A stretch of DNA of 64,000 nt from contig OZ220675.1 in NCBI GenBank assembly GCA_965116325.1, forward strand, positions 385,138 to 449,137, in the 5' to 3' direction. The stretch comes from Dehalococcoidia bacterium. GTDB lineage: Bacteria; Chloroflexota; Dehalococcoidia; Lucifugimonadales; JAGWBF01. Below are positions 2,240-58,668 of this stretch, piece after piece. A model generated the notes under the pieces. That model made no database searches, was not told the origin of the DNA, and saw nothing but the letters and a program-made list of their open reading frames with translations. How positions within the stretch are numbered: the first letter of the stretch is position 1; each line of letters opens with the position of its first letter. The position numbers and the translations under genes are program-made.

Positions 2240-3343
2240 CTAGGGCCGGGGCCACACCACCTTTTTCGTCCCGTCCCTCCACTGCACCATAGGCACCGTC
2301 CTCCCCACTTGGGCGCCGCTGGCCGGGTCAATCTCGAAGGGGCCATAGAAGGTGGCGAACCGCAACCGCCTTACGGCCTCCATGAGGTCCGCGCTGTGCA
2401 GGCTCCCGGCTTCCATCACACAGCTCTCCACTGCCAGCCCAGCAGCATAGGCCTGGGCCATGGTGTAGTCCGCCTCCATCGTTCGGAACCCGGCGTGCCT
2501 GCTCTGAAGCTCAGCCGTCGTTGGCCCGTAGTCAGGCGCGTAGTCCAGGGCCGGCTCCCACTGGCTGGGGCCCATGAAGCCTTCCGCCATGGCTCCCATC
2601 TCTCTACCGAACAAGGATACTCCCGCCGCGACCACCACCAGCGCCTCCGCGTCCAGGGTTGCCGTTGCCAGTTCCTTCGCCAGGCCTATGTCATCCTGGA
2701 TGCGCCCCACACCGACCACAACGTCGGGGGAGCCCTCCTTGATGCGACTCGCAGCCTGTCTGAAGTCAGGAAGGTGCGGCTCGTAGGTTTCGTTGAAAAT
2801 GATCTCCCAGCCACGCTGGACGGCCCGCTCCACGAAACCCTCGGCCACAGCGCTCGGAAACGATCCCCGGGATGACCGTAGGACGGCCACTTTGCGGGGA
2901 ATGGCGTCCCTGTCCATCAGAAGGTCCACTACCCCCCATAGGTACTTGGAGGCGGGGGCTAGAATGCTGACGACCCAGCTAAAGCCGCCGTATTGCACAG
3001 CATCGGATGCGCCTCCGTGGTTCCACATCACCACGCCCAGCTCCTCGCATACGTGGGCGCAGGCCAGGCTGAGAGAGCTGGAGTAGGGCCCGAGCAGGAT
3101 GTCCGCCCGGTCTTCTTCAATCAGCCTGCGGGTTATGGAAGAGGCCGTTGCGGGCCTGCTCTCGTCATCGTAGTGAAGGAGATGTACTGGCAGAGGATCT
3201 GAGTGGCCGGTCAATCGTATTCCGCCTGCAGCGTTGCAGTCCTCGACCCAGTACCTTACGCCTTCGAAGGCCCGCGTTCCCTGGCTGCTGAACTGGCCCG
3301 TGAGGGAGATGGGAAGGCCAACCTTGATGGAGGTCCTGCTCAA
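2240..3343 (-). CDS. LivK-like (type 1 periplasmic-binding fold) ligand-binding protein with no visible signal peptide
   Basis: The N-terminus IKVGLPISLTGQFSSQG and the overall pattern are typical of branched-chain amino-acid binding proteins. The ORF starts directly at the mature-domain motif. Confidence 0.75.
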   Translation of the reverse strand: MSRTSIKVGLPISLTGQFSSQGTRAFEGVRYWVEDCNAAGGIRLTGHSDPLPVHLLHYDDESRPATASSITRRLIEEDRADILLGPYSSSLSLACAHVCEELGVVMWNHGGASDAVQYGGFSWVVSILAPASKYLWGVVDLLMDRDAIPRKVAVLRSSRGSFPSAVAEGFVERAVQRGWEIIFNETYEPHLPDFRQAASRIKEGSPDVVVGVGRIQDDIGLAKELATATLDAEALVVVAAGVSLFGREMGAMAEGFMGPSQWEPALDYAPDYGPTTAELQSRHAGFRTMEADYTMAQAYAAGLAVESCVMEAGSLHSADLMEAVRRLRFATFYGPFEIDPASGAQVGRTVPMVQWRDGTKKVVWPRP

Positions 3344-3374
3344 GCGCAGTCCGAAAAAGGCCCTGTTTGGGCGC

Positions 3375-4565
3375 TTACTCGCCGCTCAGGGGGCGGAATA
3401 TGCCAAAGGAGCTGGTGTAGCCGTGAAGGTAGGTCGATCCCGCCACAGGCCCGATCTCCCCGTTGCAGAAGAACCCCCCGAGGGGGACGTAGCCGATGGT
3501 GTCGACAAAGAGGCCGGTGTCGTGGTCGGGACGCCCGTACAGGTATTCGCCCCTGCCAAGGCAGGAGAAAAGCAGCGCGCCCGACGTATCCGTGGCCCGC
3601 TCTTCCTCGGCGTACCTGGCAAGGAGAGCGGACAGATCTTCGGCCGAGGTGATAGCATCCCGGAGATGAAACTGCACCCTCTGACCCTCCCGCAGCATCT
3701 CACCTATGGCGATAGCGCCACCCTCGGACTCAACTCCCATAACGTTGCGTATCAGGAAATCCCCCTGCTGGGGATTGTCGATGAAATCGTCCATCACAAT
3801 TCCAAGGAACAGGGAGTTCTGCATGAGGGACTGGTCACGCTCGCTTGAACGCACGAAGATCTCCTTCAGCACCTCTAGGGGAGGACGTTCGTCCAAGGCG
3901 ACTAGCATGTTGTTGCGGCTCTCGGTTATGCACATCAGGTCGCCGATAGGACGGCAGCCCTGAGCCACAACTGTGTCGATCACAATGTTGCCCTTCAGCG
4001 CCAGTCCGATGGCGCCCGAGCGGTGTATCTCGTCCCCCAGGAACAAGGCATTCTGGCCGGGCTGCTGGCCGCCGCTGGCCAGACCTCCGATCTTGGTGCT
4101 GTTCCTGTAGGCGTAGTCGATACCTTCAATAAATGCCTGGGCGGGGAAGCTGTAGGGGTCCGCCACCAGCATGAAGTAGGGGTAGTCGTCAGCGGGCACG
4201 CCCAGAGCCTCCTCCCACCTGGAAGGACTGGCATCCTGGTCGGGAACGTCGCTGCCTACCAGGTGAAAGGCTTTTACATCTACGCCGGGCATGGAAGCTA
4301 CCGTCAAGGATACCCCCGGGCTGTGCTCTACCTCCCTGGAACCTCCGATTACGCCTCCCGCCGAGCACCCGAACACCAGGACGTTTCCCAAGTGCTCCCG
4401 CACAAGCGAAGGCACGCGGCTGTACTCCCCGGCGAAATGCTGGGACACGAAGACTACTGCGACATCCCCTTGCTCACCCTGCAGCTGCTCCTTTACCTGG
4501 GTAGCGCAGATGGCGAGAGCTTCATCCAGGGACTCCTTGTCGGACACGGTGGAAGACCATTTCAT
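3375..4565 (-). CDS. FIST (N+C) domain sensory protein
   Basis: 396 aa with the FIST_N/FIST_C pattern (..VVFVSQHF.., GGLASGG, FFCNGEIGP). Confidence 0.75.
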   Translation of the reverse strand: MKWSSTVSDKESLDEALAICATQVKEQLQGEQGDVAVVFVSQHFAGEYSRVPSLVREHLGNVLVFGCSAGGVIGGSREVEHSPGVSLTVASMPGVDVKAFHLVGSDVPDQDASPSRWEEALGVPADDYPYFMLVADPYSFPAQAFIEGIDYAYRNSTKIGGLASGGQQPGQNALFLGDEIHRSGAIGLALKGNIVIDTVVAQGCRPIGDLMCITESRNNMLVALDERPPLEVLKEIFVRSSERDQSLMQNSLFLGIVMDDFIDNPQQGDFLIRNVMGVESEGGAIAIGEMLREGQRVQFHLRDAITSAEDLSALLARYAEEERATDTSGALLFSCLGRGEYLYGRPDHDTGLFVDTIGYVPLGGFFCNGEIGPVAGSTYLHGYTSSFGIFRPLSGE

Positions 4566-4794
4566 TACGCCACATCTCCAGCCCGAAATTGGTTCTATCA
4601 GCTATAACCTCGGGCGCATCTGACTACTGCCAGTATAGCAGGCCAAGGTTGCCCTTTCATCTTGGCCTCCAGGGGCAGCGTGGGCCGATGAGCCGAAATG
4701 TAGCTTTTCCCGGCCTCATGGGCCACAATAGGCCCACCGGCCCGGGCCCACGCACACCAGGCCTGCCAACCTTGACGAAGACGCGAGAGGTGCA

Positions 4795-33915: not shown

Positions 33916-34233
33916 ATGCCCGCAGACTTCGTGAAGGTGGCCCAGACTTCTGACCTGGCTCCGGGGCAGATGAAGCAGGTGCAGGCCGGCGACGAGCTGA
34001 TACTGCTAATCAACCTCGACGGGGAATACTACGCCATGGACGACATCTGCTCCCATGCGTACGCCCCCCTGACCCAGGGCGACCTGAACGGCGAAGAGGT
34101 GGAGTGCCCCCTGCATGGCAGCGCCTTCAATGTGAAGACCGGGGAAGTGCTGTGTCCCCCCGCCAACCAGTCCCTGGAGACATTTGCGGTTAGGATTGAA
34201 GGGGACGACATCCTGATCGGTCCCAAGAGCTAG
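33916..34233 (+). CDS. Rieske [2Fe-2S] ferredoxin-type protein
   Basis: Carries the Rieske ligand motifs CSHAY...(17 aa)...CPLHGSAF. Confidence 0.9.
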   Translation: MPADFVKVAQTSDLAPGQMKQVQAGDELILLINLDGEYYAMDDICSHAYAPLTQGDLNGEEVECPLHGSAFNVKTGEVLCPPANQSLETFAVRIEGDDILIGPKS

Positions 34234-34282
34234 GTGCTGGGGGCGGGAAACCGTTCCCCAAGATGGGCCGATTATGTGGCAG

Positions 34283-35020
34283 TTACCGGCCCCTGGTATC
34301 TCCCCACAGGTAGATGTGCAGGCGGGGGCTGAACCTCAGGTTCTCGTTCACGCAAAGCTGGCTGAGCCACGCGCTCCGCTCCTGGAGCACTGACGGGGTT
34401 CGACCCTCGGGCGAGAGGAGCACCCGCTCCCTGGGAATGGCCAGTTCTTCGACTAGCCTGCGCACCTCTTCCATGTCGGACTCTCTCGTAACCACGAACT
34501 TGAAGAAGGCCTGCGGCATGGCAGCGAAGGTCCTTAATGCCCCCGGAACGTAGCGCTTCTCCAGGGTGTTTCCCGACGTTGCCAGCTTGGGGGAGACGTT
34601 CCATTGGTCGATGTACGTGGCCATCTCAGTCGTTGGTGCAATGGTGCCGTTGGTCTCAACCTCGAAGGTGAACCCCCGGCGTTTTAAGGAGCCAATCAGT
34701 CCAGCCATCTGCTCTTGCTGCATCAATGGCTCGCCCCCGGTGACCACCATATGGGAACAGCCGTAACGCAGCACCTCGCGCTCCACATCCTCAGCGGAAA
34801 TATCCACCACCTCTTTGTCGTAGTCGTAGTTCTTCCAGTCCCACGTGTACTTGGTGTCGCACCAGGTGCAGGCCAGGTTGCACTGGGCCAAGCGCAGAAA
34901 CACTGCAGGAATCCCGGCCAAGGTGCCCTCGCCCTGGAGGGTGTGGAAAATCTCCGGCCTTCCGTCGGCCCCGCGGCTTACTTTGAGGGACGTGGTCGAG
35001 TTTCGGACATCTGCATTCAT
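34283..35020 (-). CDS. queE: 7-carboxy-7-deazaguanine synthase (radical SAM)
   Basis: Carries QGEG..AG.P.VFLRLAQCNLACTWCDTKYTW, with operon context alongside queC/D/F. Confidence 0.9.
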   Translation of the reverse strand: MNADVRNSTTSLKVSRGADGRPEIFHTLQGEGTLAGIPAVFLRLAQCNLACTWCDTKYTWDWKNYDYDKEVVDISAEDVEREVLRYGCSHMVVTGGEPLMQQEQMAGLIGSLKRRGFTFEVETNGTIAPTTEMATYIDQWNVSPKLATSGNTLEKRYVPGALRTFAAMPQAFFKFVVTRESDMEEVRRLVEELAIPRERVLLSPEGRTPSVLQERSAWLSQLCVNENLRFSPRLHIYLWGDTRGR

Positions 35021-35766
35021 TCCGACCCGCCCTTCAGCCTGACCAGCAGGGGGTCGGGATACCCCGCCTCTTCAAAGCCCTTGGCCCGCAGGATGCAGCT
35101 GTCGCAGGAACCGCAGGGCTCAGAACCTCCCTGGTAGCAGCTCCAGGTGTTGGCGAGGGGAGCGTCCAGCTCCATGGCCCACTGGACAATCTCCGCCTTT
35201 GACATGTGGATGATGGGCGTCTCGATTTCCATGGGGACGCTGTACTCACTCCACAGCTTGCTCCCGTATTTCAGGACCTCCTTCATTTTCTCGAAGAACT
35301 CGGGCCGGCAATCGGGATACCCGCTGTAGTCGATGGCGTTGGGGGCCATAAAGAGAGTGGCCTGCAGCTCATCGGCCATAACCTTCTCTTGCTCTATGGC
35401 CCACAGCGCCTGGCTCTCCAGGTAGGCCGCCCCAACGGTGATGAAGTAGGTGTTGCGCAGGGGCACGTAGGAGCTGGGAATGGACTGGCCCATCAGACTG
35501 GCATCCCGCTCTTCGGGCAGGGAGACTACGTCCGGGCTGGTCAGGGCCGAGTACCAAGCGACCTTCCCGAAGGAGGACACATCCACCAGCTCATGGCGGA
35601 TGCCCAGGGATGCGCTGACCTGGCGGGCGCTGTCCAGCTCGGTGCTGTGGGTCTGGCCGTAGTAGAAGGTGAGGGCACTCAACCGGTCAGTCCTGCCTTT
35701 GGCAAAAGCAGAGACAGTGGTGGAGTCCAGCCCGCCGGAGAGGAGGGTGACGCCAATGCTGACCAT
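35017..35766 (-). CDS. queC: 7-cyano-7-deazaguanine synthase
   Basis: Carries the LLSGGLDSTT PP-loop and the C-terminal Zn motif CYQG...CGSCDSC. Confidence 0.93.
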   Translation of the reverse strand: MVSIGVTLLSGGLDSTTVSAFAKGRTDRLSALTFYYGQTHSTELDSARQVSASLGIRHELVDVSSFGKVAWYSALTSPDVVSLPEERDASLMGQSIPSSYVPLRNTYFITVGAAYLESQALWAIEQEKVMADELQATLFMAPNAIDYSGYPDCRPEFFEKMKEVLKYGSKLWSEYSVPMEIETPIIHMSKAEIVQWAMELDAPLANTWSCYQGGSEPCGSCDSCILRAKGFEEAGYPDPLLVRLKGGSE

Positions 35767-36194
35767 TAGGGAGCCGATCGATATTCAGCGTATTGCGTGG
35801 GGGACTCCCACATTCGGACCGCTGCCGGCTCGATTCCACAAAGCTCCCTGGTCTTGTGGTATATCTCCCGGGCCATCACTTCAGCCGATGGGTTTACCCC
35901 GTCGAAAAGGTACAGAAACTGCTCCTTGACTCCCTTCAGGGCTTCGAGAAGCTCTCCGTCCCCGCTGTTCAACAAGAAGGCGTGGTCCCAGTTCATCTCT
36001 ATCCAGGCGGACACCTTCCGCTTCAGCTCACTGAAATCCACGACGAATCCGACGCTGTCCAGGGCATTGGAGGATACGAAGATTTCGACCTTGTAGTTGT
36101 GGCCGTGGGGGTGGATGCACTTGCCGTCGTGGTCCAGGAGCCGGTGGCCGGCGGAGAACTCCAGCTCCACCCGCACCTGGAAGTCATCCTTCAT
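35766..36194 (-). CDS. queD: 6-carboxy-5,6,7,8-tetrahydropterin synthase
   Basis: Carries FSAGHRL....KC...HGHNY. Confidence 0.9.
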   Translation of the reverse strand: MKDDFQVRVELEFSAGHRLLDHDGKCIHPHGHNYKVEIFVSSNALDSVGFVVDFSELKRKVSAWIEMNWDHAFLLNSGDGELLEALKGVKEQFLYLFDGVNPSAEVMAREIYHKTRELCGIEPAAVRMWESPTQYAEYRSAP

Positions 36195-36652
36195 GGTCGC
36201 TGCTCGGTGAGCGCCCTCTCGCGAGGCAGACCCTCAGCCGGATACCTGGCAGTAACGGTTGTGTGCAGACCGCCCCGGACCTTGTAGTCCAGGACTACCT
36301 CCATCCGATGGGGTTTGCAGGCGCCCACCAGGTCGTCCAGAATGCGGTTTGCGGCGCTTTCCTGAACAATGCCCACGTCCCTGTAGGAAAGCAAGTAGTA
36401 CTTGAGGGACTTGAGCTCGATACATAGCTTGTGAGGCTCATAGGTGATGCTCAGGGTCCCGTAGTCCGGGAGGCCCGTCCAGGGACACACGGCGGTGAAT
36501 TCGTCGGTCTCTATATGGACCTCGGAGTCTCCGCAAGAAGGCTCGTAGTCGAAGGACATCAGGATTGCGCTGTCGATGGACGCCTCGGGCCCTCCCTCGA
36601 TGCGCCGATCCAGGTTCTCGTAGCGATCTTTCAGCGATGCTATAGATGCCAT
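36191..36652 (-). CDS. queF: NADPH-dependent 7-cyano-7-deazaguanine reductase (type I)
   Basis: Carries EFTAVCPWTGLPDYGTLSITY and SLKYYLLSYR. Confidence 0.9.
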   Translation of the reverse strand: MASIASLKDRYENLDRRIEGGPEASIDSAILMSFDYEPSCGDSEVHIETDEFTAVCPWTGLPDYGTLSITYEPHKLCIELKSLKYYLLSYRDVGIVQESAANRILDDLVGACKPHRMEVVLDYKVRGGLHTTVTARYPAEGLPRERALTEQRP

Positions 36653-36716: not shown

Positions 36717-36745
36717 ATGATAGGTTAAGGCCCAATAGGTGTCAA
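36717..36745 (-). promoter_or_regulatory. Sigma70-like promoter of the queFDCE operon
   Basis: On the reverse strand, TTGACA (36740-36745), a 17-nt spacer and TATCAT (36717-36722), with a leader of about 60 nt. Confidence 0.5.
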
Positions 36746-37245
36746 AACCCACGGACGGCCCCCTCCTCTCTCCTTGTCATTCCTATAGTGCTGGGGTATC
36801 CTTGTTGTATCTGCCAGGTACGGGAGGGCCCTTGGCCCACGCAGGGGAAGAGGCGTTGAAAGACCAGTCCACAACAGACAAACTCGCCGGCGCCGAGCTG
36901 CTCGAATCCCCAGCAGAACTGGAAGAGATACAGGTGCTGCTGAAAGAGGCGGTCGCTTCGGAGCCTTCCCTTCGACTGCTGCCCAAGTTCGCTATGGCGC
37001 GAGCCGGAAACCCCGACTTCCACCGGGTCTACTTCGCCATCCATTGCACATGTGGGACTGCGGGCCTCGTCTGCGTCGAAACAGCCAAGTCCAAGACCCT
37101 GCCCCAGGTTGAGAATGCTCTGCCTACCCTCGCACAGCACCTGTTGAGCAGGGCAAGGCAGTTTGCCAGCATGCCCTGCTCAATGCACACAAGCATGCGC
37201 TCTATGGGCATCCAGGCTTCGAAGCAAGCTGGTGAGGGGAGCTGA
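36739..37245 (+). CDS. Hypothetical Cys-containing protein, start uncertain, stop 1 nt before the FTR-like gene
   Basis: The open frame ends at TGA 37243-37245 and the next ATG is at 37247. I recognise no family. In-frame TTG candidates lie at 36832 and 36856. An antisense ORF of similar length exists. Confidence 0.35.
   Translation: MSKPTDGPLLSPCHSYSAGVSLLYLPGTGGPLAHAGEEALKDQSTTDKLAGAELLESPAELEEIQVLLKEAVASEPSLRLLPKFAMARAGNPDFHRVYFAIHCTCGTAGLVCVETAKSKTLPQVENALPTLAQHLLSRARQFASMPCSMHTSMRSMGIQASKQAGEGS
36775..36803 (+). promoter_or_regulatory. Possible promoter for the selenoprotein operon
   Basis: TTGTCA (36775-36780), a 17-nt spacer and TATCCT (36798-36803). The -10 is weak. If it is real, the ORF start at 36739 is not used. 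Confidence 0.2.
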
Positions 37246-37246
37246 T

Positions 37247-37663
37247 ATGCCAAAGAAGATCGACCCGGAAAAGGCGATGGAGGGCGCCATCCGCTTTTCG
37301 GAAAAGTACGTAGAGAAGAGCGGGTACAAGTTCTTCCCCGACCAGGAAGTGGTACGCCTCGTGCAGGAAGGCCTGGCCCGCAACCAGGTGGAGTACGGGT
37401 ACCGCTACTGCCCCTGAATGCCCCTCAGCGGCGATCCCGTCGAGGACCGCAAGAAGATTTGCCCCTGCGACCGGCACCATGAGGACATAGAACGGGATGG
37501 TTTCTGTATTTGAATGTTCTTCGTAAGCGAAGAGTTTCTTCGCCAACAGGAACAAGGAAACGACATCGAGCAGACCATAGGTGAGGCAGTTAAGCCCGGT
37601 GAAGGCCTGTTCGACCAGCCATATAAGTCGAAAGCAGACCAGAAGGGCAGCCAGAGTACGTAG
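37247..37663 (+). CDS. Ferredoxin:thioredoxin reductase catalytic-subunit homolog, predicted selenoprotein with two Sec (UGA at 37415-37417 and 37511-37513)
   Basis: GAGGGGA RBS. The read-through translation is MPKK..FSEKYVEKSGYKFFPDQEVVRLVQEGLARNQVEYGYRYCP-U-MPLSGDPVEDRKKICPCDRHHEDIERDGFCI-U-MFFVSEEF... It aligns to the FTR motifs CPC / CPC / CHCMLF, and both UGAs sit on the second Cys of motifs 1 and 3. The frame stays open to TAG 37661. Confidence 0.75.
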
Positions 37664-37678: not shown

Positions 37679-37915
37679 GTGAGCATAACCGTTTACACAT
37701 CTGTTGGTTGAGGCCCCTGCCACATGGTGAAAGTGTATCTTTCACAGAAGGGGCTCGAGTTCACCGAACGAAACGTATCGCTGGACGAAAATGCCAGAGA
37801 AGACCTGCTCTCCCTGGGATATCGCAGCACACCCGTGACTGTGATAAACGACGAGAAGGTCGTAGGTTACAGTCCTCCCAAGCTGGAAGAAGCCCTGCAG
37901 ACAGCCGGGATCTAG
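37679..37915 (+). CDS. NrdH/glutaredoxin-like redoxin, predicted selenoprotein (UGA at 37709-37711; active site U-G-P-C)
   Basis: GTG start 10 nt after GAGGAG. The translation (M)SITVYTSVG-U-GPCHMVKVYLSQKGLEFTERNVSLDENAREDLLSLGYRSTPVTVINDEKVVGYSP fits the Grx/NrdH fold. The tracked ORF (37724-) lacks strand 1 and the CxxC motif. Confidence 0.8.
37713..37754 (+). promoter_or_regulatory. SECIS-like stem-loop 3' of the redoxin UGA
   Basis: Lower stem GCCCCU/AGGGGC (37713-18 / 37749-54), upper stem GUGAAAG/CUUUCAC (37727-33 / 37739-45) and apical loop UGUAU, about 23 nt after the UGA. Confidence 0.5.
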
Positions 37916-52777: not shown

Positions 52778-53109
52778 TGGTGGAGACGGGGGAGGGTCGA
52801 ACTCCCCGTCCAGAAGGCAGCCCAGCTAGATATACTACAGGCTTATCCGGTCCTTAACTCTCGCCCTGCCGTGCTTCACCGGCATAACATGGCAGGCCTC
52901 AGCCGATGTTTCTTGAGCTGCCCTTATCGGCGTCTGGACAACAGCATCCCGGAATTATGGCGCCTGTGACCCAACCTCCGGGCATGGTCGGGGCAGACGA
53001 GCCGCCAGTTTAGGCGGCTAGGGCGAGTTCACGTTCGCCAGTTACTGTTTTGCCACCTGTTTAGCGAGGTGGATGGCACCTCGGCCTGCGATCCTCCAGG
53101 TTGGTCCCC
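52778..53109 (-). ncRNA. ssrA: tmRNA (ssrA), tag reading frame GGC GAA CGU GAA CUC GCC CUA GCC GCC UAA = GERELALAA
   Basis: On the reverse strand, the 5' GGGGACC... pairs with the 3' ...GGGGAGUUCGACCCUCCCCCGUCUCCACCA (tRNA-Ala-like acceptor with G3:U70, T-arm and encoded CCA). The tag ORF lies at 53010-53039. Confidence 0.9.
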
Positions 53110-53186
53110 TGTCGAACCCACGCGTCCCCAGATGTGTGAACACCCATATTATCCCACTTCTCACGCTTCCCCGTCCAGTGCCGAGC

Positions 53187-58596: not shown

Positions 58597-58668
58597 GGGG
58601 CTGTAGCTCAGGGGGAGAGCACCTGCTTTGCACGCAGGGGGTCAGGGGTTCGAATCCCCTCAGCTCCA
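58597..58668 (+). tRNA. tRNA-Ala (anticodon UGC)
   Basis: Cloverleaf: acceptor GGGGCUG/CAGCUCC with G3:U70, D-arm GCUC/GAGC, anticodon loop cuUGCac, T-arm AGGGG-UUCGAAU-CCCCU. CCA is not encoded. Confidence 0.93.

Follow-up and report, generated by a model that had tools for sequence, protein, structure and literature searches.

A stretch of 64,000 nucleotides from contig OZ220675.1 of a Dehalococcoidia bacterium (assembly GCA_965116325.1), referred to here as the window, carries a gene for a homolog of the catalytic subunit of ferredoxin:thioredoxin reductase (FTR) that is interrupted by two in-frame UGA codons. In all likelihood this gene, designated FtrB-UU (37247..37663, + strand), is a genuine member of the NCBIfam NF041072 family of double-selenocysteine FtrB proteins, its two UGAs being recoded as selenocysteine (Sec) and its product being an FTR-like enzyme. 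The likely partner of this enzyme is a Sec-containing glutaredoxin, Grx-U, encoded immediately downstream. The reading rests on the position of the UGAs in the FTR fold, on their conservation among relatives together with that of the protein beyond them, on compact hairpins 3' of each UGA, and on a conserved three-gene context.

The family itself is already known, and the gene described here is a real member of it, not a new kind of selenoprotein. A two-Sec FTR was among seven new selenoprotein families recognized in Global Ocean Sampling data, at that time from only 2 reads (Zhang and Gladyshev, 2008; PMC2398784). The FTR family has since been tabulated in reviews from 2022 and 2026 (PMC9312934; PMC13188914), the latter giving NF041072 as its model, CxU as its motif and two as its number of Sec residues (PMC13188914). 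A preliminary description of this DNA suspected novelty, a suspicion that fails because the family has been listed since 2008 (PMC2398784) and the NF041072 model is passed. Its reading of the gene as a two-Sec homolog of the FTR catalytic subunit is supported by column mapping, orthologs, downstream conservation and hairpins. The residual novelty lies in the conserved cassette of ORF-X, FtrB-UU and Grx-U, and in the orphan status of ORF-X.

UGA codons on the redox-active columns of FtrB

The FtrB-UU frame opens with ATG at 37247, contains TGA at codons 57 (UGA 1, 37415..37417, +) and 89 (UGA 2, 37511..37513, +), and closes with TAG at 37661-37663, so that 49 open codons follow the second TGA and the complete product has 138 residues. 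A Shine-Dalgarno-like GAGGGGA (37234..37240, +) lies 6 nt 5' of the ATG, within the 3' end of ORF-X. The coordinates, ribosome-binding site and TGA positions of the preliminary description were found to be exact on re-reading. With U written as C, residues 13-105 match the PF02943 model (FeThRed_B) at 90.7 bits against a gathering score of 22 (E=7.3e-26). NF041072 ('FtrB family double-selenoprotein', FtrB_double_U) sets its cutoff at 160 bits, and FtrB-UU scores 226.3 (E=5.5e-68) over the full model, with residues 3-123 on positions 1-121 of 121.

The order of motifs in the protein is C55-P-U57 ... C72-P-C74 ... C87-I-U89-M-F-F. In the numbering of the Synechocystis FTR, Cys57 and Cys87 form the redox pair, with Cys57 as the residue that attacks the substrate and Cys87 as the one that interacts with the cluster, and Cys55, Cys74, Cys76 and Cys85 are the [4Fe-4S] ligands. 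HMMER alignments to solved structures (Synechocystis 2PUK and 2PU9, Arabidopsis 7BZK, the archaeal FTR-like 4TPU, and also 7PWE) place each UGA at the second Cys of its motif, U57 in CPC and U89 in C-H/Y-C, corresponding to the Cys57 and Cys87 columns of Synechocystis. Residues C55, C72, C74 and C87 align with the four cluster-ligand cysteines of the solved FTRs and are invariant in the family. The proposal that all four ligands are kept as Cys, with exactly the two disulfide partners encoded by UGA, is thus borne out by the PDB alignments. The redox-active Cys57-Cys87 disulfide is absent as such from FtrB-UU, both functional columns being Sec codons. This is a substitution at the same functional positions and no loss, a predicted diselenide taking the place of the disulfide. 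As judged from the alignments, the placement of both UGAs on the predicted redox-active Cys columns is far beyond chance.

Relatives were collected from genomes and metagenomes. Five Dehalococcoidia metagenome-assembled genomes (MAGs) encode FtrB-UU at 91-97% identity, and a scan of metagenomes with the U-free core as its seed returned at least 304 relatives, from which the best 80 loci, most of them marine, were kept. Together with the window these make up the 86 loci compared. Both UGA columns carry TGA in 86/86 loci, and no further stops and no frameshifts are present, so that the scattered lesions named in the preliminary description as the mark of a decaying gene do not occur. The residues MPLSGDP.EDRKKICPC after UGA 1 and MFFVSEEFL after UGA 2 are invariant across these loci, bearing out the expectation of conservation 3' of each UGA. 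At these conserved residues a codon-by-codon table gives synonymous codon entropy near its maximum; the combination of nearly saturated synonymous sites with residues conserved past the UGAs therefore indicates selection on the translated protein. A natural C/U variant (L088, contig k141_250315) combines TGC at the first column with TGA at the second, and the more distant homologs P0013 and P0014, as well as all PDB FTRs, have Cys at both columns. Alignment of an in-frame UGA with Cys in homologs and conservation of the protein past the UGA, both used to recognize selenoprotein genes, are accordingly found here.

TGA is otherwise an ordinary stop codon in these sequences, as had been proposed for the window. 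Of the 48 non-overlapping open reading frames (ORFs) in the window that reach 150 aa or more, 11 end in TGA, among them that of ORF-X just upstream, and TGA is the true terminator of 22 related FtrB genes, so UGA has not been reassigned. Recoding to Sec, rather than decay or an altered code, is favored because of the conserved TGA/TGA pair, the hairpins described below and the ordinary use of TGA as a stop. When the whole window was screened in a generic way for TGA codons lying in frame beside Cys, 121 candidates emerged, and all but the three sites of the cassette are presumed to be noise. Sequencing error was also considered as a source of the TGAs and was rejected on the 86/86 TGA/TGA count, the codon entropies and the use of TGA as a terminator.

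Two kinds of public mis-annotation affect this family: code-4 translation of short contigs, which puts Trp at each Sec codon (P0001-P0009), and fragmentation of the gene elsewhere. On contigs identical to the window FtrB is cut to 56 aa, and in two other loci (L086, L087) the gene calls split it at the UGAs into 56-58 aa fragments. A full-length product of 148 residues has been called at the equivalent position in one NCBI assembly (contig L092). Public calls of Grx-U begin past its UGA and yield 63 aa. The two selenoprotein gene calls in this sequence (56 aa and 63 aa) are truncated and need correction.

SECIS-like hairpins downstream of the UGA codons

The preliminary description advised looking for a selenocysteine insertion sequence (SECIS) near the UGAs, and a SECIS-like hairpin is found after each of the three in the cassette, the third being UGA 3 (37709..37711, +), codon 11 of Grx-U. 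Hairpin 1 (37431..37450, +) reads GCGAUCC-CGUCGA-GGACCGC and has an A.C mismatch at its fourth pair in the window, hairpin 2 (37527..37543, +) reads GCGAAGA-GUU-UCUUCGC, and hairpin 3 in the Grx gene (37727..37745, +) reads GUGAAAG-UGUAU-CUUUCAC. The stems are of 7 bp and begin 13, 13 and 15 nt after their respective UGAs, which in both FtrB hairpins corresponds to nucleotide 17 when the U of UGA is counted as 1. The family consensus is GCGAUCC-NGUNGA-GGAUCGC for hairpin 1 and GUGAAAG-UGUAY-CUUUCAC for hairpin 3. A stem-loop shortly 3' of the UGA with G or U in its apical loop, as looked for in selenoprotein genes, is therefore present in all three cases (loops NGUNGA, GUU and UGUAY). Folding of the window sequence gives z = -2.58 for hairpin 2. 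In the C/U variant L088, where the gene was read at 397-663 plus read-through, the hairpin-1 sequence is intact after the Cys codon.

Pairing is conserved across the relatives. For hairpin 1, 97.7% of cells are paired among 74 distinct sequences, with slid partners giving 14-47%. The corresponding values are 99.6% for hairpin 2 (67 distinct sequences) and 100% for hairpin 3 (48 distinct sequences), and slid-partner controls range over the hairpins from 14 to 71% paired. One compensatory change from C-G to U-A is seen in hairpin 2 (in L015, L021 and L043), and hairpin 3 shows a compensatory change from G-C to U-A in L013 and L018. It is precisely in the stem arms that codon entropy drops to roughly zero (GGC GAU ... 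GAG GAU CGC for the first hairpin; AGC GAA GAG UUU CUU CGC for the second), and the loop codons and all flanking codons of the FtrB hairpins vary freely. A similar collapse occurs in the stem of hairpin 3. This loss of synonymous variation within the arms is a stronger argument for the hairpins than the pairing itself. With their limits now defined, the three compact SECIS-like hairpins are useful for heterologous expression.

The ORF-X, FtrB-UU and Grx-U cassette

FtrB-UU is the second gene of a conserved three-gene unit. Among loci with enough sequence on the relevant side, 70 of 73 carry ORF-X upstream of FtrB and 50/58 carry Grx-U downstream. The reverse test, starting from three divergent ORF-X homologs, found FtrB fragments and the Grx gene adjacent in 3/3. 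No other recurrent gene surrounds the cassette in the loci compared. This linkage of ORF-X, FtrB-UU and Grx-U is established by the present analysis, and neither the conserved context nor the defined hairpins are mentioned in the literature consulted on the family. The unit defines a set of proteins for co-expression consisting of FtrB-UU, the Sec-glutaredoxin and an uncharacterized partner.

The downstream gene, Grx-U (37679..37915, +), encodes a glutaredoxin-fold selenoprotein of 78 residues with a GTG start, a TAG stop and a U11-G-P-C14 active site. Its in-frame codon for Sec11 is TGA in 60/60 scorable copies. The protein matches the Pfam Glutaredoxin model PF00462 (E=2.4e-14). It is NrdH/YruB-like, with scores of 73.8 against a cutoff of 88.55 (TIGR02196), 59.3 against 85.75 (TIGR02194) and 44 against 66 (NF041212), and falls outside the curated NrdH/YruB families because it is below every NCBIfam cutoff. 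By analogy with known reductase systems, Grx-U is the probable substrate of FtrB-UU.

ORF-X (36832..37245, +), the first gene of the cassette, runs from a TTG start to a TGA stop and encodes 137 aa. The public call for a protein identical to that of the window (P0016) likewise has 137 aa, and the longer mechanical ORF that opens at 36739 is interrupted by stop codons in relatives of ORF-X. A weak sigma-70-like promoter candidate (TTGTCA-17-TATCCT, 36774..36802, +; 9/12 consensus matches) lies in the divergent intergenic region before the gene. The ORF-X stop (37243-37245) is separated from the FtrB ATG at 37247 by a single T (37246), suggesting translational coupling. An exhaustive profile search of 1.84 billion proteins recovered 74 representatives of the ORF-X family. 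These are short stand-alone proteins, with the exception of a marginal 701-aa sequence (P0151, E=8.8e-4, eight stretches); none is clearly a fusion, and the named members are annotated only as hypothetical proteins. The invariant residues are C72, C74, E83, F111, M114, C116, H119 and R123, which include a CxC...CxxH arrangement. No significant match to ORF-X was found in Pfam, NCBIfam or the PDB sequences. The AlphaFold2 model (pLDDT 83.9, above 93 in the core) consists of a helix, three strands and two long helices, and a Foldseek comparison with PDB folds gave no match (best E 0.1, TM below 0.4). From its co-occurrence with FtrB and its four invariant potential metal ligands, ORF-X is conjectured to be probably a partner or metal-binding accessory subunit of FtrB. 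It may serve as a partner subunit because the cassette is without a variable-subunit gene or a rubredoxin domain.

A perfect 12-bp inverted repeat, TTGAGCAGGGCA...TGCCCTGCTCAA (37144-37183, +), lies inside ORF-X about 65 nt before the FtrB start. The 60-nt segment folds at -28 kcal/mol, the median in the wider family is -12, and the repeat is partly kept in the closest relatives. As an element of the cassette the palindrome was rejected, being lineage-specific and absent from the wider family.

In the window the cassette is flanked by a divergent queF-queD-queC-queE cluster and by an OTCase-like gene. On its minus strand the region upstream (33916-36652) holds queF, queD (PTPS), queC and queE (radical SAM), and on its plus strand a gene for a 105-aa Rieske-type ferredoxin (33916-34233). 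The que cluster and the Rieske-type ferredoxin do not belong to the conserved unit, because the arrangement is common only to the closest relatives. In many marine loci (e.g., L008-L049, at about 3200-4750 of the locus) the cassette is preceded by tRNA-Val(GAC) and followed by tRNA-Asp(GTC), an arrangement that the window does not share. Two structured RNA genes and no others were detected in the window, a tmRNA gene with the tag peptide GERELALAA (52778-53129, -) and tRNA-Ala(TGC) (58597-58668, +). A gene for glycine reductase selenoprotein A (GrdA), recognizable by the motif CFV-U-TSAG with an in-frame TGA, occurs 0.5-3.5 kb from FtrB-UU in L051, L072, L081, L084 and L091, and in L081 it is directly upstream of FtrB-UU, in the usual place of ORF-X. 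GrdA is absent from this window.

Proposed mechanism, alternatives and known systems

The following scheme would account for the arrangement. SelB-type machinery would recognize the small hairpin that begins 13 nt after each FtrB UGA, and Sec would be inserted at both positions. The product would be a single-domain FTR-like enzyme in which Cys55, Cys72, Cys74 and Cys87 hold a [4Fe-4S] cluster and Sec57 and Sec89 form a diselenide on oxidation. If FTR and ferredoxin:disulfide reductase (FDR) are a guide, the Se-Se bond would be reduced via the cluster by a low-potential, one-electron donor, probably a ferredoxin-type protein. Sec89 would bind transiently to the cluster, leaving Sec57 to attack the oxidized partner. 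That partner would most likely be the co-transcribed Grx-U, whose U-G-P-C motif would cycle between selenenylsulfide and selenol/thiol forms and hand reducing equivalents on to downstream targets. A diselenide set against a [4Fe-4S] cluster would be an unusual redox center, whose potential and one-electron chemistry would reveal the way in which Fe-S-mediated disulfide reduction is tuned by selenium. A more elaborate version of the scheme, offered only tentatively, is that of a dedicated module of three proteins, confined to Chloroflexota and built around FtrB. In it ORF-X would be indispensable, either as a metal-binding partner or as the subunit through which electrons enter, and would stand in for the FTR variable subunit (FTRv) or for the FDR rubredoxin domain. 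The all-selenium relay from FtrB to Grx would in that case provide a very low-potential supply for targets such as GrdA.

Several observations weigh against a double-Sec FtrB working with Grx-U. Support for the hairpins consists mostly of invariance: hairpins 2 and 3 show a single compensatory event each, and hairpin 1 shows none. In the window itself the mismatch leaves hairpin 1 at -5.9 kcal/mol, compared with -10.6 for the consensus, and the unconstrained fold at this site favors an alternative structure (z = -0.76). Rfam holds no matching bacterial SECIS model, and scans of the cassette at gathering and at permissive thresholds returned only noise. The Sec machinery was searched for in the window and 94 related loci with six-frame SelA, SelB and SelD motifs and with ARAGORN for tRNA-Sec; neither the 64 kb of the window nor 490 kb of related loci yielded a selA, selB or selD signature or a tRNA-Sec gene. 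The presumed Sec competence of this genome thus rests on literature at the level of the lineage and on comparative signals. Sec competence of the lineage is plausible, since the BSepDB paper credits Dehalococcoidia MAGs with 46-49 selenoproteins apiece (PMC13326102). An adjacent Grx gene is absent from 8 of the 58 loci with room for one, the conserved cassette includes no gene for a ferredoxin or for an FTR variable subunit, and no biochemical study of the double-Sec FtrB family was found in the literature.

Some of these observations bear on the choice of partners. FtrB-UU may be a true double-Sec enzyme that serves another substrate or draws on another donor: it might reduce GrdA directly, or a (per)selenide or disulfide of low molecular weight, or it might take its electrons from ORF-X instead of ferredoxin. 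This alternative is considered unlikely, though more probable than the others. It is consistent with the loci that have no adjacent Grx gene and with the cassette's lack of a ferredoxin gene, as well as with the C/U variant L088, which has neither ORF-X nor Grx as a neighbor and is found near a gene for a desulfoferrodoxin N-terminal domain. The closest solved relative of FtrB-UU is, moreover, of the FDR type and not a plant FTR. The linkage of a Sec-encoding grdA to FtrB-UU in five divergent loci, including the direct adjacency in L081, hints that GrdA may be a physiological acceptor, although this linkage is limited to a few clades and does not extend to the window. Against other substrates stands Grx-U, which directly follows FtrB in 86% of the loci that have room for it and in every case carries Sec in its thioredoxin-type U-G-P-C motif. 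Adjacency combined with an invariable Sec is the expected signature of a dedicated reductase-redoxin pair, and Grx-U is retained here as the likely partner.

A second alternative holds that the UGAs act mainly as regulated terminators or attenuators, with short peptides dominating and the full-length protein rare or dependent on selenium. In every bacterial selenoprotein gene Sec insertion has to compete with termination, an mRNA with two Sec codons should give less protein, and the weakened hairpin 1 of the window points in the same direction. Strong purifying selection past both UGAs, which takes in the fourth ligand Cys87 and the C-terminal extension, argues that full-length FtrB is the selected product and makes this explanation highly improbable. 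That the gene is a pseudogene or decaying, with inactivating TGAs, might be read from the standard gene callers that stop at 56 aa, but is refuted by TGA at both columns of 86/86 independent loci with invariant residues and saturated synonymous sites downstream. Reassignment of UGA to Trp, Gly or Cys throughout these organisms has an equally negligible probability: nine full-length database relatives recovered by protein search (P0001-P0009) do carry W at both Sec positions, which is due to code-4 gene calling on short contigs, but TGA ends long ORFs of the window, ORF-X and related FtrB genes, and in-frame UGAs occur solely on redox Cys columns, each with its conserved hairpin.

The double-Sec FtrB read here can be compared with several known systems. 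It agrees with the NF041072 family in its full-length equivalog match, in Sec on both redox Cys columns and in its distribution among marine and environmental Chloroflexota-type metagenomes. The protein itself does not differ from that family, to which the three-gene context and the defined hairpins are the additions. With classical FTR (1DJ7, 2PUK, 2PU9, 7BZK) it shares the PF02943 signature, the CPC...CPC...CxC motifs and the same ligand and redox columns, but similarity to these structures amounts to only 32-37 bits. FtrB-UU differs from them in its Sec/Sec redox pair and in a conserved C-terminal extension of about 40 residues, and its likely partner has a glutaredoxin fold, whereas that of classical FTR is a canonical WCGPC thioredoxin. 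No gene for FTRv (FeThRed_A) is called within 10 kb either side of FtrB-UU, and ORF-X is not recognizable as an FTRv, having no Pfam match and a model that fits no PDB fold, FTRv included.

The best matches among solved structures are to the FTR-like FDR of Methanosarcina acetivorans (4TPU, 58.7 bits) and to 7PWE (50.2 bits). FDRs are Fe-S enzymes related to the FTR catalytic subunit and have been reported to reduce atypical thioredoxin-like proteins (PMC6262447). Like 4TPU and 7PWE, FtrB-UU stands alone with no variable subunit. FDR has a fused rubredoxin domain and Cys, whereas FtrB-UU consists of an FTR domain and a C-terminal tail and has Sec; Pfam finds only PF02943 in its 138 residues and no rubredoxin domain. 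Grx-U, for its part, resembles the Sec-glutaredoxin/thioredoxin and NrdH/YruB proteins in its PF00462 fold and in having Sec at the N-terminal position of a CxxC-type motif, and is set apart from NrdH/YruB by its sub-cutoff scores and by an active site of the thioredoxin type, U-G-P-C. A precedent for a natural diselenide redox center is provided by the SelL family of selenoproteins, whose redox motif is a UxxU diselenide (Shchedrina et al., 2007, as cited in PMC2398784). The proposed center of FtrB-UU would share the diselenide with SelL. SelL has a thioredoxin fold, an adjacent UxxU pair and no Fe-S cluster, whereas the two Sec residues of FtrB-UU would lie 32 residues apart, flanking a predicted [4Fe-4S] site.

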